A stretch of DNA of 37,354 nt from a virus. Taxonomy: Duplodnaviria > Caudoviricetes. Below the pieces are notes generated by a model, which had not been told where the DNA came from, did no database searches, and worked only from the letters and a program-made list of their open reading frames with translations. How positions within the stretch are numbered: position 1 is the first letter of the stretch; each line of letters starts with the position of its first letter. A program made the position numbers and the translations under genes. Positions 1 to 28,330 of this stretch are shown here, piece after piece. The stretch spans positions 1 to 37,354 of the IMG/VR virus record IMGVR_UViG_3300042940_000963; one strand, 5' to 3'.

Positions 1-819
1 GGCTTCACCCTTCGCGCCAGCGCCACGCGGCTCACTGGTGGCGTCGTCTCCGTCACCGACACCACCGCCAGCACGTCCACGACGACCGGAGCACTTGTCG
101 TTGGCTCCAACGTGGGCTTATCGGGGAACTCGGGCGGCGCGAATTGGTTTGGCGGCGAGCGGCTCATTTCGCAGATGAACCAAAACGCGCCTACTCGACT
201 TCAGGTGCGGAACGATACGAGCGGGACGGCTGCACAAGCTCAAGTTTCCGCAACGCTTGGCGACTTTACGACATATACGGCAATGGGTTCACTTTCTGCC
301 GGATTTACCACGTCGGGGCTATTTGCCGCAAACGCGGGCTACATTGCCAGCAATGCGACGGCAGGGCTAAACGTCTTCACGGTGGGCGCAACGTCGCTGA
401 CTCTTGGCACCAACGGCACAGCGGCACTCACCCTCGCCTCCAACGGCGCGGCGACGTTCTCAAACTCTGTCCGCTCCACCTCCGCCACCGCAGGCATCGG
501 CTACGCGACCGGCGCGGGCGGCGCAGTCACGCAGATCACGAGCCGCACCACGGGCGTCACGCTCAACACCGTTTCGGGCGCGATCACGCTTTTCACCGCC
601 GCAGGCAGCGCGACGTGGCAATCCTTCACCGTCACCAATTCCGCCGTGGCCGCGACGGACACGATCATCGTCAACCAGCGCAGCGGGACCGACCTTTACA
701 TGATGTCCGTTACCGCCGTGGGCGCGGGTTCCTTCCGCATCAGCTTTGCCACTACGGGCGGCACGACCTCGGAAGCCCCCGTGCTCAACTTCTCCGTTAT
801 CAAAGCTGTCTCCGCCTAA
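1..819 (+). CDS. C-terminal part of long fibre protein (5'-truncated; continues the 35102..end ORF)
   Basis: Frame 1 is open from base 1 ([32 protein letters not shown]...) to TAA at 819. It is Thr/Gly/Ala-rich, and bases 1-77 are identical to 36830-36906 in the same reading frame. Confidence 0.8.
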   Translation, partial: GFTLRASATRLTGGVVSVTDTTASTSTTTGALVVGSNVGLSGNSGGANWFGGERLISQMNQNAPTRLQVRNDTSGTAAQAQVSATLGDFTTYTAMGSLSAGFTTSGLFAANAGYIASNATAGLNVFTVGATSLTLGTNGTAALTLASNGAATFSNSVRSTSATAGIGYATGAGGAVTQITSRTTGVTLNTVSGAITLFTAAGSATWQSFTVTNSAVAATDTIIVNQRSGTDLYMMSVTAVGAGSFRISFATTGGTTSEAPVLNFSVIKAVSA

Positions 820-4638: not shown

Positions 4639-4660
4639 TCTTAACTAGGTTTGGAAAAAC

Positions 4661-4695
4661 AGCCTCACGCTTCACGGCGTGGGGCTTTTTGTTTT
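4661..4695 (+). terminator. intrinsic terminator after MCP
   Basis: AGCCTCACGC-TTCACG-GCGTGGGGCT followed by TTTTGTTTT. Confidence 0.85.
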
Positions 4696-4743
4696 GACCG
4701 GTCCGAGCGATCAGCAAGACCTGACGCACACAACACAACGATT

Positions 4744-6132
4744 ATGATACTTTCGCTTTGCGTAATTACCGGAAACGAGGCGGCACAAATCGGCGCGATG
4801 CTCGACAGCTTCGACGGCGTGATTGACGAGGTTTCACTCGTTCGCGCCATCGGCTCGCAGGAACCGGACGCGACCGAGCAAATCGTCCGCGACTGGTGCG
4901 CGGCGCACTCGGTCGGATTCATCTTCTCGGAATACAAGAACGGCGCGACGGCGCAGGCGTGGAAGCACGTCGATTCGTTTGCCCAAGCACGCAACCAAGC
5001 GTTCGCGCAGGCGTGCGGCGACTGGCTTATCTGGGCCGACTGCGACGACGTGATTGCGGACGCCGAAAAGCTAAGGGACCGGCTCGCGGAGCTATCCGAC
5101 GACGTGCTTATGGTCCGTTGTCCTTACGACGTGCGCGGAACGGGCAAGAAGCTCCACCGCGAACGCATCGTTCGGCGTAGCGCATTTGCAAGCGGGCGCA
5201 TCTGGCACCACGACGTGCACGAAAACTTGCTCCTGCTTCCGAACGACCGGCATTTTGACTGGGCGACGCCGGTTTGGCATCATCAGCCGATTGCGATCAA
5301 GCAGGACAACCGCAAGCGCAACCTCGCGATTCTCGGGCGCAGCGTGGCGGAGTCCGCCACCCAATACTTTTACATTCACCAAGAGCACTACTGCGCCGGC
5401 AACAAGGCCGCAGCCGAGCAGTTCGGACGCATCGCGCTGAGCTTCCCAAACCTCGACGATTCGTTCCGCTACGAGGTCGGGCTCAACCTTGCGCGGCTTG
5501 TCGCTTCTCGGCGCGAGGCGATGCAGTTCGCGATGTCGGCGCACGGTGTTTTCCCTTGGTGCCGCGAGGCAATCGCGTCGGTCATCCTCTTGGCGTTCGA
5601 GCGCAACGACGGCAAGCGGGCGAGCTTTTGGGCGTCGCGGATGCTGAGCCTTCCCGAGCCTACCGAGAAAGACCGACCGTGGACCCATGAGGTCAAATGG
5701 TATGGCTGGGCCGGGCACGACCTCGCGGCGCGGGCCTACCGCCTCGCCGGCCAACTGGACGACGCGGCGGCGTTGCAGCTCGTGTTTCACAAGCACACGG
5801 CACCGCGGATCCGGCTGACGCAAAAGACACTCGGCAACTCGACCAAATCGGTCGCCTTCCGCGACGCTTGGCTTTCGACAGCGGCGCAGCCGGAGCGCAT
5901 CGAACACCGCTTCCTCGTGCGTGCCGACGACGCCGAGACGATGGGAATGGCGAAGCAGTTCCTGCACGACGTGGGCGAGCCGAGAGACGCAGCCGAGCCG
6001 GGCACGATTTGCGTCGTGGCCGAGGACGGAATGGTGCCGCCTCACAACTGGGATGAGCGCGTGCTTGCAAGCGGCTGCACGCTGATCGACTCGGAGAACA
6101 TCGAACAAATTCTGGGAGCGAAAAAAGCATGA
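4744..6132 (+). CDS. GT2-family glycosyltransferase with TPR-like helical region
   Basis: LSLCVITGNE start, FAQARNQAF, DWLIWADCDD (DxD), RERI and VHE motifs as in GT2-TPR protein glycosyltransferases. Start placed at ATG 4744. Confidence 0.85.
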   Translation: MILSLCVITGNEAAQIGAMLDSFDGVIDEVSLVRAIGSQEPDATEQIVRDWCAAHSVGFIFSEYKNGATAQAWKHVDSFAQARNQAFAQACGDWLIWADCDDVIADAEKLRDRLAELSDDVLMVRCPYDVRGTGKKLHRERIVRRSAFASGRIWHHDVHENLLLLPNDRHFDWATPVWHHQPIAIKQDNRKRNLAILGRSVAESATQYFYIHQEHYCAGNKAAAEQFGRIALSFPNLDDSFRYEVGLNLARLVASRREAMQFAMSAHGVFPWCREAIASVILLAFERNDGKRASFWASRMLSLPEPTEKDRPWTHEVKWYGWAGHDLAARAYRLAGQLDDAAALQLVFHKHTAPRIRLTQKTLGNSTKSVAFRDAWLSTAAQPERIEHRFLVRADDAETMGMAKQFLHDVGEPRDAAEPGTICVVAEDGMVPPHNWDERVLASGCTLIDSENIEQILGAKKA

Positions 6133-24153: not shown

Positions 24154-24315
24154 ATGAAACAAACCAAAGAAGAAATCGAAGCGCAGATAATTGCGCTGCT
24201 CAAGCGGAGGACTGAGGGTCAGCGCATTGTGCGATCACTGACGCAGGCGCTCGAATCTCTTGAAAAGGAACTCAAGGAGCTTTTGCAACAACTCGCCAAA
24301 CATTCTGAACCATGA
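24154..24315 (+). CDS. coiled-coil hypothetical protein
   Basis: MKQTKEEIEAQ..., heptad pattern. Confidence 0.55.
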   Translation: MKQTKEEIEAQIIALLKRRTEGQRIVRSLTQALESLEKELKELLQQLAKHSEP

Positions 24316-24878
24316 AAAACACAAACGACCAACTAACGACGGCACTCGAACACGCAACGCGGGTGCCGTGCGACATCAACGAACATCTGCCTTTGCTCTC
24401 GCTACTCGCGGCGCAATGCCAGCAAGTGACCGAATTCGGCGTGCGGACCGGGTGCAGCACGCTCGCGTTTCTGCACGGGCTGCGAACGAAACGGGCGACG
24501 CTGCGAAGCTACGACATCAACGACCAGTTCGGCGTGTTTAAGACGATGCGCCCGTACACGACGACGGATTGGGTGTTTTCGATCTGCTCCACGCTGGCAA
24601 TCTCGCAGATTGAGCCGACCGACCTGCTATTCGTGGACACGCTGCACCGCTACGACCAAGTGCGGCAGGAGCTGGCAATTCATGGCGACGCGGCACGGCG
24701 CTGGATTGTGTTTCATGACACCGAGACGTTCGGGACCGTGGGCGATGACGGCGGCGAGGGCATCAATCGGGCGATTGACGAGTGGCTGGTGGTGGAGCCG
24801 CAGTGGCGCGTCGTTTACCGCACGCACCGAAACAACGGGTTGACCGTGATTGAGCGCGAGGCAGAAACGCGTTCGTGA
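24312..24878 (+). CDS. class I SAM-dependent methyltransferase (Methyltransf_24-like)
   Basis: VTEFGVRTGCST, DLLFVDTLHRY, IVFHDT and NNGLTV motifs. Confidence 0.8.
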   Translation: MKNTNDQLTTALEHATRVPCDINEHLPLLSLLAAQCQQVTEFGVRTGCSTLAFLHGLRTKRATLRSYDINDQFGVFKTMRPYTTTDWVFSICSTLAISQIEPTDLLFVDTLHRYDQVRQELAIHGDAARRWIVFHDTETFGTVGDDGGEGINRAIDEWLVVEPQWRVVYRTHRNNGLTVIEREAETRS

Positions 24879-25800: not shown

Positions 25801-26283
25801 ATGAAACTAACAACGACCAAAATCACCGAGCTCTCGCTCGACCCGTCCAACGTCCGCAAACATTCGCGCCGAAATCTCGACGCGATCAAAGCCAGCCTGC
25901 GCAAATTCGGCCAACAAAAGCCAATCGTCGTAGACGCGAAAGGGATCGTCCTCGCCGGCAACGGCACGTTGACCGCAGCGCAGGAACTCGGCTGGACCGA
26001 GATCCAGATCGTGCGGACGGAACTTGCGGGCGTTGAGGCCACGGCGTTTGCGATCGCGGACAATCGGACGGCGGAGCTGGCAGAGTGGGATGATAATCTA
26101 GGGGACGTGCTGAAGTCCCTGCAAGACGAGGACGTTGATTTAACTGATCTTGGCTACTCAGCAGAAGACATTGCGAAAATGCAGACGCCTGACTTTGCAG
26201 CCGGAACCGTGGATGACCAAGGAAAGCTCGATGAGAAATCACCGATTGAATGTCCGCATTGCCATAAGTCTTTTACGCCGTGA
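25801..26283 (+). CDS. ParB/Srx N-terminal domain protein with C-terminal Zn-ribbon-like tail
   Basis: NVRKH, SLRKFGQQKPIVVD, LAGNG, IADNRTAE; ends IECPHCHKSF. Confidence 0.85.
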   Translation: MKLTTTKITELSLDPSNVRKHSRRNLDAIKASLRKFGQQKPIVVDAKGIVLAGNGTLTAAQELGWTEIQIVRTELAGVEATAFAIADNRTAELAEWDDNLGDVLKSLQDEDVDLTDLGYSAEDIAKMQTPDFAAGTVDDQGKLDEKSPIECPHCHKSFTP

Positions 26284-26942
26284 AAACAGAGCTGAAAATT
26301 GATTGGGCGACGCATGAATCGGCAAAGTATGCAGTTGAAAATTGGCATTACAGTGAATGCCTCCCAGCCGGTAAACTCGTGAAGGTTGGCGCATGGGAAT
26401 CAGGAAAGTTTATCGGCTGCGTAATTTTCGGAAGAGGCGCTAATAACAATATGGCAAAACCCTACGGGCTGACGCAGCTTGAATGTTGTGAGCTCGTCAG
26501 AATCGCGCTTACAAAACACCTCTCACCAGTCTCACGGATTGCGGCGCTTGCGATGCGATTTCTTAAATCACAATCGTCAGGATTGAAACTCATTGTTAGC
26601 TATGCCGACCCAGAACAAGGACACCACGGCGGAATCTATCAGGCAGGGAATTGGATTTATTGCGGAAGGTCACAGGCGCAACAGGAGGTCATTTACAAGG
26701 GCGAGGTGATGCACAAGCGGACGGCAAATGCGCTTTTTGGAACAATTAAAGGAATGCAGAAGTCTGCTATTTTTTGGAAGCATAAGTATCTAATGCCGCT
26801 TGACGCCGAGATGCGCGCCAAGATTCTCCCTCTCGCAAAGCCTTATCCAAAACGCGCCGGAGGTGACACCACGGACACGCCAGTCTTCCAGACTGGAGAG
26901 GGCGGCTCGACACCGACCCCGGCGCTCCAATCTTCTGAATGA
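26280..26942 (+). CDS. mom: Mom-family (GNAT-fold) DNA adenine modification enzyme
   Basis: NWHYS, ELVRIAL and IVSYADPEQGHHGGIYQAGNWIYCG motifs characteristic of Mu Mom homologues. Confidence 0.8.
   Translation: MKTELKIDWATHESAKYAVENWHYSECLPAGKLVKVGAWESGKFIGCVIFGRGANNNMAKPYGLTQLECCELVRIALTKHLSPVSRIAALAMRFLKSQSSGLKLIVSYADPEQGHHGGIYQAGNWIYCGRSQAQQEVIYKGEVMHKRTANALFGTIKGMQKSAIFWKHKYLMPLDAEMRAKILPLAKPYPKRAGGDTTDTPVFQTGEGGSTPTPALQSSE
26854..26929 (+). tRNA. non-canonical tRNA-Gly(TCC)-like element inside the mom 3' end
   Basis: 76 nt. Acceptor GCGCCGG/CCGGCGC, then T and CCA; D-stem GTG/CAC; anticodon stem CCAGT/ACTGG with loop CTTCCAG; T-arm GGCGG-CTCGACA-CCG(A)CC. Confidence 0.8.
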
Positions 26943-27568
26943 GCGACGCCGCGCAATCACCGAGCGAAATCCTCGCCCGCCGCAACGTCCAAAACATCGC
27001 GGTCAAGCTCAAGGCCGGCAAGACGCTGACGACCTCGGAGCGGAAGGCGCTCAACGAGTTTCAGGCCGAGCAGACGGGCGGCTGGGTGAAAGACCTGAGC
27101 GCACTGGCGAAGGAGCTGGGGATGTCTCGGCAGGGCATTTACGATGTCCGCAATCGCTTTGCGGACGCGCCGAAAAAGCACGAGGACGGCAAGCGCGAGA
27201 ACCTGACGGCGTGGCAAGCGTTTTGCGCCGAACACCTGATTGGCAAGGACACGGCGACCAAGAATCTCGCCGACCTCAAAGCCGAACTCATGCGCGAGCA
27301 AATCCGTCTCGCCCGGTCCAAGAACGAGCGCGAGGCCGGCGACGTGATTGATCGGGAGGTGGTCGAGGCGATGCTCGTGACGCTCGGCCAAAAGCTCGAC
27401 CTGCTGCTGCGGCTCAAGCTGACGATCGAACTCGGACCTCGTGGCGTCGGGATGAACGCGGCAGAGCTGAACGTCGAGGGCGGCGCGATCTTGTCGGAGA
27501 TCCGCGAAGTCGTGAACGCGAATATCGCGACGTTCGAGGCCGAGGCGCTGGACCGGTCGAGGGAGTGA
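26939..27568 (+). CDS. terminase small subunit (Nu1-like)
   Basis: HTH LSALAKELGMSRQGI, coiled coil LKAELMREQIRLARSKNE, AGDVIDREVV. Confidence 0.75.
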   Translation: MSDAAQSPSEILARRNVQNIAVKLKAGKTLTTSERKALNEFQAEQTGGWVKDLSALAKELGMSRQGIYDVRNRFADAPKKHEDGKRENLTAWQAFCAEHLIGKDTATKNLADLKAELMREQIRLARSKNEREAGDVIDREVVEAMLVTLGQKLDLLLRLKLTIELGPRGVGMNAAELNVEGGAILSEIREVVNANIATFEAEALDRSRE

Positions 27569-27589: not shown

Positions 27590-27617
27590 TTGCAATCAAT
27601 CAAACGGTGGGCATCGT
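27590..27617 (+). promoter_or_regulatory. putative promoter of inserted cassette
   Basis: TTGCAA-16 nt-CATCGT ending 7 nt before ATG 27625 (leaderless geometry). Confidence 0.35.
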
Positions 27618-27624
27618 CTAGCGC

Positions 27625-27789
27625 ATGAACTCAACACAAACGGAACAAATCAAAGCGCGCGCCAAATTTCTTAAACTAGAAAAGGCTGCGCACGATGCTG
27701 ATTATGCTCGGCGCTGCGCGGCGGCTCGCGAAATTGCGCTCGCGAAGATTGCGGCGCTTCAAGCAATCGAAGCCGCGCGCGCTAAATAA
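27625..27789 (+). CDS. 54-aa Ala-rich helical protein
   Basis: Translated by hand: MNSTQTEQIKARAKFLKLEKAAHDADYARRC...ARAK*. Confidence 0.55.
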   Translation: MNSTQTEQIKARAKFLKLEKAAHDADYARRCAAAREIALAKIAALQAIEAARAK

Positions 27790-27799
27790 AACCCAACCC

Positions 27800-27827
27800 G
27801 CCCCGAAGAAACTAAGGGGCTCTTTTT
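27800..27827 (+). terminator. terminator-like hairpin
   Basis: GCCCC-11 nt-GGGGC followed by TCTTTTT. Confidence 0.45.
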
Positions 27828-27831
27828 ACCC

Positions 27832-28152
27832 ATGAAACTTACCAAAAACGACGCGGAAGAAGTCGCGCACAAGCTCGGGGTTTTGGCAGATTCGCCAGAC
27901 TTGCAAGATGATTACGGTCTTACTCAAAGCCAAGCCGATCAACTGCGAGCCAGCGTCCCGCTGTCTGGCGGTCCGTGGATAATTCCGTTGTGGGGAATGG
28001 ACGCGGTGCGCGGAGAGATGGCAGACCATTGCGTTGTGCTTTCCGGCATTGCTTCCGACGCTCGCTCGAATCGTGAGTTTGGGCAAGCGTTGCGAATTTC
28101 CAAGCAAGCAAAGCGGCTTAACGCTATTTTTTCAACCGAGGGCGAAGCATGA
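27832..28152 (+). CDS. hypothetical protein
   Basis: 106-aa ORF coupled to the next gene. Confidence 0.6.
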   Translation: MKLTKNDAEEVAHKLGVLADSPDLQDDYGLTQSQADQLRASVPLSGGPWIIPLWGMDAVRGEMADHCVVLSGIASDARSNREFGQALRISKQAKRLNAIFSTEGEA

Positions 28153-28328
28153 CCGCCGGCGGCAAACGCACCGGCGCAGGCCGCAAGCCGCTCGCGCCTG
28201 ACCAACGCTCCGTCGGCGTGACGGTGCGCCTCCGTCCGCAAGTCGCGGCGCGGTTTCGCGATTTATGTAAACGGGCGGGCGTGAGCCAGTCGTGGGCGTT
28301 CACAGCGTGGATTAACCAATCGAGGTAG
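28149..28328 (+). CDS. ribbon-helix-helix DNA-binding protein
   Basis: MTAGGKRTGAGRKPLAPDQRSVGVTVRLRPQVAARFRDLCKRAGVSQSW...: GGKRxGAGRK motif, then a strand and two helices. Confidence 0.7.
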   Translation: MTAGGKRTGAGRKPLAPDQRSVGVTVRLRPQVAARFRDLCKRAGVSQSWAFTAWINQSR

Positions 28329-28330
28329 CT

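Follow-up and report, generated by a model that had tools for sequence, protein, structure and literature searches.

A mom-linked, tRNA-Gly-like RNA family in phages as a candidate glycyl carrier for DNA hypermodification

The 3′ coding end of a phage Mom-family gene carries a 76-nt non-canonical tRNA-Gly-like RNA, one member of a structured RNA family tied to Mom that comparative sequence analysis strongly supports as real. We propose, with a probability of roughly 0.7 judged from sequence, that this RNA serves as a dedicated non-ribosomal glycyl donor for Mom-catalysed adenine hypermodification. At only slightly better than even odds, we would extend this to a widespread phage class in which a DNA-modifying aminoacyl transferase and an orthogonal, ribosome-blind glycyl carrier are written into a single DNA stretch, with D-armless forms, a bulged T stem acting as EF-Tu antideterminant and excision setting the enzyme-to-carrier ratio.

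The stretch of DNA analysed (the window, 37,354 nt) is a complete-looking tailed-phage record according to profile searches. Its parB-like, mom, terS-like, terL and portal genes follow each other in the order of a packaging-operon start (Table 1), and the terS-like ATG overlaps the mom stop codon 9 nt past the CCA. A promoter and terminator scan gave signals at chance level. Three small ORFs lie between terS and terL (27600–28330), one of which was scanned and had no family match. Elsewhere, the window encodes a GT2 glycosyltransferase (4651–6132, behind the major head gene) and a Methyltransf_24 protein (24312–24878, behind the helicase gene).

A preliminary description, made from the sequence alone, had named the ORF a Mom-like DNA modification gene. 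Family profiles and structure search agreed: it matched phrog_1384, scored 147 bits against PF25680 (curated cut-off 27.1), and its AlphaFold model (pLDDT 86.8), compared with the PDB, found Mu Mom as best match (8bv8, E 6e-12, TM 0.69–0.74) with the same GNAT fold. The folded core spans residues 1–191 and ends at PYPK, as Mu Mom likewise does, and is followed by a disordered tail (residues 192–220, mostly encoded by the RNA element; pLDDT below 50 for residues 195–220 in the predicted model). Six residues reported important in Mu (H58, Y59, R111, S124, D149 and Y159) align with H23, Y24, R74, S85, D110 and Y120, while W48, R151 and W181 of Mu are not conserved in the alignment. The Mu-essential R151 aligns with E112, is an arginine in just two of the 23 family members aligned, and may be specific to Mu. 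The ORF is thus assigned to the Mom-family GNATs, formation of 6-NcmdA from Gly-tRNA being putative in this homologue.

Table 1. Genes and RNA features around mom in the window
Feature	Position	Strand	Basis or remark
ParB-like gene	25801..26283	+	overlaps mom start; phrog_620 E 1e-38; PF02195 below cut-off
Mom-family GNAT DNA-modification gene, 220 aa	26280..26942	+	PF25680 E 6e-43; phrog_1384 E 7e-54
Terminase small subunit-like gene	26939..27568	+	phrog_57 E 3.5e-5
76-nt non-canonical tRNA-Gly(UCC)-like RNA with encoded CCA	26854..26929	+	base-by-base check, covariation, RNAalifold
Acceptor stem, 5′ strand GCGCCGG (G1 C2 G3)	26854..26860	+	pairs with CCGGCGC 26919–26925; U73 26926; CCA 26927–26929
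D arm, 3 bp plus A13-A22 mismatch	26863..26878	+	missing from 68–70-nt relatives
Anticodon arm, TCC 26887–26889, extra C32-G38 pair	26880..26896	+	covariation, RNAalifold
T arm GGCGG/CCG-A-CC, bulged A 26916	26901..26918	+	bulge between equivalents of pairs 50-64 and 51-63

Base-by-base inspection of the window copy recovered what had been described at the outset: a perfect 7-bp acceptor stem, U73, CCA and a TCC anticodon flanked by U33 and A37, sense and in frame, together with the GlyRS identity elements G1-C72, C2-G71, G3-C70, U73 and C35/C36. G1 falls on the second position of the Arg codon directly after PYPK. The anticodon stem consists of 26880–84 and 26892–96, the variable loop has 4 nt and positions 8 and 9 are A and G. 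The copy departs from the tRNA canon by its 3-bp D stem, by A8 in place of U8, by a Watson-Crick C32-G38 pair, by a T loop with CUC where TTC is usual, and by an A that bulges from the T stem. Set against canonical tRNA-Gly, it has the cloverleaf, G1-C72, C2-G71, U73, C35, C36 and CCA, and lacks U8, the TTC T loop and an uninterrupted 5-bp T stem. Owing to this non-canonical cloverleaf, neither ARAGORN with default settings nor Rfam (including RF00005) called the element, and relaxed ARAGORN caught only some relatives along with many false matches. With a covariance model (R1), whose training set included the window copy, the element was the only significant match in the window. Taken alone, the window copy does not have the cloverleaf as its minimum free energy fold (z -1.9; cloverleaf 7.8 kcal/mol above the minimum), and its acceptor pair probability was 0.69 in a short context and 0.02–0.04 in longer mRNA contexts. 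Since single-sequence folding prefers another structure, the case rests on comparison.

The element was present at all 80 close Mom loci (the best 80 of 320 relatives, found with a protein query that included the tail, a possible bias), nine of which matched only up to residue 194. In a second Mom subfamily, about 25% identical and collected by a core-only protein search, 78 of 80 loci (best 80 of 135) carried it, 52 by a parser and 26 by covariance model; the parser found 0/80 in reversed-sequence controls. The elements fall into three structural classes, a full 76-nt cloverleaf and two D-armless forms of 68–70 nt with an extended anticodon helix. Paired cells amounted to 96.4% in the 76-nt class (53 copies) and to 99.8% and 97.1% in the two D-armless classes, with two-sided changes in 13, 11 and 10 of 21 pairs, respectively. 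Among 500 shuffles, none reached the covariation score in any of the three classes or the pairing score in the 76-nt class, and slid controls scored far lower, bearing in mind that related sequences can outscore shuffles without real structure. The acceptor stem was 100% paired in 53 sequences, with compensatory changes at four of its seven pairs. From the same 53 copies, RNAalifold recovered the cloverleaf, the T-stem bulge and a covarying 32-38 pair independently; the 76-nt cloverleaf first described was therefore found unprompted, whereas its non-canonical shape had escaped that description.

Of the 98 distinct elements that the parser extracted from the loci collected by protein search, 97 keep the bulged A, together with compensatory stem variants, and it also occurs in the 4-bp T stems of antisense copies; T stems of the Arthrobacter and Pan3 copies lack it. 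CCA is encoded in 87 of the 98 and missing from 11. G1-C72, C2-G71, U73, C35/C36 and G10-C25 were kept and G3-C70 mostly so, counts that are partly circular since the parser demanded GCG/CGC/U, although none of the 80 close loci was missed by it. The wobble base was A, U, C or G in 81, 73, 12 and 0 of 166 classified elements (41 more were unclassified); ACC, otherwise a rare anticodon, is thus the commonest and GCC (G34) is absent from this set. The covariance check on Mom homologues suggested at the outset accordingly turned out positive: stems covary, NCC and U73 are fixed and CCA is mostly encoded.

These patterns bear on whether the element could be no more than the remnant of an integration site in tRNA-Gly, or a recombination hotspot, devoid of RNA function. 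Mom cores have indeed been swapped near the G1 junction: L015 and the contig of run X10 (loose end at 26852) carry different cores on the same element and terS. Nevertheless, compensatory changes in all stems, a bulge conserved across differing stem contexts, and the presence of whole elements, not 3′ halves, that are unlike host-type tRNA-Gly make such a relic scarcely credible. An attP relic in particular was rejected, being disfavoured by covariation.

We then asked at which level selection operates. Across 61 distinct loci, U73 is the second base of a codon 47 times, the third 12 times and the first twice, and in two of these loci a stop codon interrupts the element. Among the 35 copies of 76 nt that are in frame, four-fold-degenerate codons of the element are frozen (GGC, CCG and ACC, 35/35 each; GCG, 32/32) where the PYP codons of the same copies vary freely. 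Compensatory stems, use of three reading frames, internal stops, frozen codons and the disordered tail together indicate that, at the sequence level, the RNA and not the tail peptide is under selection. Peptide-level selection on the tail was ruled out by the codon and frame evidence. Similarly, a conserved alternative mRNA fold was ruled out, as codons upstream vary and no conserved alternative pairing was found. In one locus with a stop codon within the element (L054, 2150–2818), the next gene encodes a QueE-like radical SAM protein, which suggests a second DNA-modification pathway.

Linkage to mom was also apparent when starting from the RNA. A 29-nt T-arm/acceptor pattern returned at least 120 loci, about 1,700 IMG/VR stretches being estimated. 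Among the first 80, mom lay within 900 bp of 65 of 67 full-flank matches, versus 0/61 full-flank loci (0/80 overall) for a control pattern of canonical tRNA-Gly-type 3′ ends. In one of the two exceptions (L168), the mom N-terminus is apparently fused to the 3′ half of an element, which appears to reflect an internal mom deletion between parB and terS. The RNA is upstream of mom or within its 5′ end in 10 of the first 80 pattern loci, antisense in 17 of 80 second-subfamily loci (best 80 of 135; these copies are closely related among themselves) and outside the mom ORF in L081; fully downstream copies also occur. Four loci (L125, L184, L484 and L487) have two different D-armless elements in tandem behind one mom gene. 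The location in the 3′ coding end first reported hence holds for the window and the 3′ class; relatives can be 5′, antisense or external, and the element is optional across Mom genes. Such varied placement (5′, external, antisense, tandem) favours a trans-acting RNA.

Gene order nevertheless leaves room for an action in cis. Out of 59 loci, 54 have the next start no more than 21 nt from the CCA and 44 have it coupled to the mom stop; the downstream gene encodes a terminase subunit in 29 of 40. As the element overlaps the mom stop region or the mom start, it might govern how much Mom and terminase are made, as a tRNA mimic or a processing site, through an RNase P cut that yields a nonstop mom mRNA and uncouples terS, or through binding of Mom or GlyRS with feedback on the same mRNA. 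We consider this unlikely as the main function: copies that are antisense, wholly downstream or in tandem could not work in this way, the conservation of C35/C36 and CCA speaks for charging, for which a free 3′ end is needed, and with upstream codons varying no conserved alternative pairing was found. A cis effect may instead be a side effect of the carrier role.

A related scheme dispenses with excision: the whole mom mRNA, cut back to CCA, would receive glycine at its own 3′ end in the manner of plant-virus tRNA-like structures and hand it in cis to newly made Mom. The stop codon beyond CCA and the G1 abutting the core end would suit it in the 3′ class, yet trimming to CCA would delete that stop codon and the scheme is inapplicable to 5′, antisense and downstream copies, so that we hold it very improbable. 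A tRNA fold within a longer transcript is also found in mascRNA and in plant-virus 3′ tRNA-like structures, in a eukaryotic, non-coding context; to our knowledge neither supplies an amino acid to an enzyme encoded by the same sequence.

The reading as a trans-acting glycyl donor is in line with the features that the family keeps and loses. Compared with 89 canonical tRNA-Gly from the control loci, the 76-nt elements seldom have U8 (2/53 versus 86/89), and U33 (24/53 versus 85/89) and the D-loop GG (22/53 versus 85/89) are depleted, whereas a Watson-Crick 32-38 pair is nearly general (50/53 versus 30/89; 23/23 and 21/21 in the D-armless classes). The T-loop triplet is TTC in only 15 of 98 elements and TGC in 27. 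GlyRS contacts G1-C72, C2-G71, G3-C70, U73 and C35/C36, and charges minihelices (PMC9908026; PMC9976931). EF-Tu reads T-stem pairs 49-65, 50-64 and 51-63, which set affinity (PMC3239215), and the bulged A, sited among these pairs, would be expected from its position to hinder EF-Tu. U73 is described as protecting EF-Tu-free Gly-tRNA against DTD (PMC6097841).

Loss of translation features weighs against decoding, and hence against a counter-defence or homeostasis RNA that would act as a decoy for tRNA-Gly nucleases or acetyltransferase toxins, or top up a Gly-tRNA pool drained by Mom. Phage tRNAs have been proposed to counter host tRNA attack (PMC7824862), and a top-up would fit the link to a Gly-tRNA-consuming enzyme. 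The prevalence of ACC, the presence of no other tRNA in the window or in four of five relatives checked, and a linkage to mom that a decoy does not need make these roles quite unlikely.

The donor reading gains from work on Mu Mom, which moves glycine from Gly-tRNAGly-CCA onto dA, accepts any of the three tRNAGly isoacceptors of E. coli but not Gly-tRNAAla (PMC13219725); Gly-tRNA as Mom co-substrate, mentioned in the preliminary description, is thereby verified for Mu. Window Mom shares family, fold, most catalytic residues and core end with it; in contrast, Mu Mom draws on the tRNAGly of its host, Mu itself lacks an RNA of this kind, and R151 is not conserved here. A second precedent comes from staphylococci, where EF-Tu sequesters Gly-tRNA from FmhB and EF-Tu-avoiding tRNAGly have evolved: these NP1-3 tRNAs, which serve FmhB, FemA and FemB, combine GlyRS charging with EF-Tu avoidance and supply an aminoacyl-tRNA-dependent GNAT-fold transferase (PMC7826273). 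Like them, the window element has a non-TTC T-loop triplet (CTC) and, through C32-G38, a 6-bp anticodon stem. They differ in being stand-alone chromosomal genes with a weak A49-U65/U50-A64/A51-U63 T stem, a full D arm and peptidoglycan as acceptor, whereas the phage element is mobile, overlaps the coding sequence of its partner Mom, can be D-armless and has a G-C-rich bulged T stem. By analogy, the phage element would work like the staphylococcal non-proteinogenic tRNAGly, without being a member of that group.

We envisage the following sequence of events. The RNA would be excised from the late transcript, likely by an RNase P-type 5′ cut and 3′ trimming, and charged by host GlyRS through G1-C72, C2-G71, G3-C70, U73, C35 and C36. 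The T-stem bulge, the 32-38 pair, loss of U8 and U33 and, where it applies, loss of the D arm would block use by EF-Tu and the ribosome, U73 would shield the charged RNA from DTD, and a free donor pool would thus be available during late DNA synthesis to Mom, which would take glycine from it. In the 3′ class, the 5′ cut would spare the Mom core codons up to PYPK and remove the stop codon; each transcript would therefore yield either protein or carrier RNA. Excision would also make the mom message nonstop, uncouple terS and perhaps limit Mom dose, which cannot be the core role because antisense and external copies exist.

Several observations count against the carrier role. Host tRNAGly isoacceptors suffice for Mu Mom, and the element is absent from many mom loci; the unfavourable folding energy of the window copy, the elements that do not encode CCA, the unbulged T stems, the cellular copies away from mom and E112 in place of R151 weigh in the same direction. 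In a non-random sample of 23 cultured-phage mom loci, a Gly-tRNA-like gene lies next to mom in five (B2_17, Zartrosa, Wyborn, Pan3 and Appa, the last near-canonical and antisense) and 18 have no element, including phiEf11, whose Mom is 52% identical to the window core. It was not found in Mu and 45 Mu-like loci, and whole-record R1 searches of phiEf11, Mu, VSiP, JD024 and Riggi were empty, with no positive control alongside. Its absence from Mu, Mu-like and most sampled cultured loci means that it is not required. In a rough Mom tree, used only qualitatively as its labels carry classifier errors (e.g. L062, L494, L084, L485), full and D-armless RNAs are interspersed over both main subfamilies, and 5′ forms are spread over three or more lineages. 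In L119, a subfamily-2 Mom is accompanied by an element with 87% identity.

Among GTDB genomes, 26 of 80 pattern matches had the full acceptor stem, 16 of these lying by mom; the 54 without it were treated as chance. About six real-looking cellular copies have no mom within 1.2 kb, and two of these incomplete genomes gave no Mom match. Bulged-T-stem tRNA-Gly-like genes of this kind in bacterial MAGs (L359, L360, L375, L398 and L411, no mom within 1.2 kb) are possibly orphans or partners of other transferases.

One instance of the association is on record. The passages of McMurdie 2011 that concern it (PMC3146451) report a 76-bp tRNA-Gly-like pseudo-tRNA in the first 150 bp of mom in the Dehalococcoides ssrA island, employed as a primer target and given no function there. 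Both it and the window element are 76 nt long, tRNA-Gly-like, with an NCC-type anticodon, and lie inside mom after parB; the former is at the mom 5′ end in an ssrA island, the latter at the 3′ end in a phage. In the McMurdie legend the anticodon reads DCC, so that G would be permitted. The bulged-T-stem form is also found in a Dehalococcoidales MAG (locus L361), inside a mom frame of 269 aa. Our literature search met no paper proposing a glycyl-carrier role for a mom-linked RNA, and the two Mom mechanism papers (one being PMC13219725) do not mention phage-encoded carriers in the sections searched. Co-occurrence thus appears known from this single case, and the breadth of the family, its 3′, antisense and D-armless forms, the bulge and the donor reading appear unpublished in the literature covered.

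If the proposal is true, many phages solve the competition between Mom and EF-Tu for Gly-tRNA with a dedicated carrier, the range of non-proteinogenic tRNAs widens from the staphylococcal cell wall to the DNA chemistry of viruses, and the 2011 Dehalococcoides pseudo-tRNA acquires a function. The family, which escapes standard annotators, would also provide a naturally occurring EF-Tu antideterminant, as well as GlyRS substrates reduced to a D-armless minimum. Direct testing is feasible in cultured carriers, namely Arthrobacter phages Zartrosa and Wyborn, Salinibacter B2_17 and Pseudanabaena Pan3.

Three further loci deserve mention. In cyanophage S-SSM7 (L587, 1098–2070), mom comes right after a cluster of canonical tRNA genes (Ile, Thr, Arg, Leu) that has no Gly member. 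L105 carries an antisense element (558–631, minus strand) beside a divergent GNAT gene (PF00583; 17–553, plus strand) missed by the Mom profile. Finally, L028 has tandem mom genes (662–1393 and 1409–2104) with different cores, identical flanks and identical RNA elements, either a real duplication or an assembly artefact.
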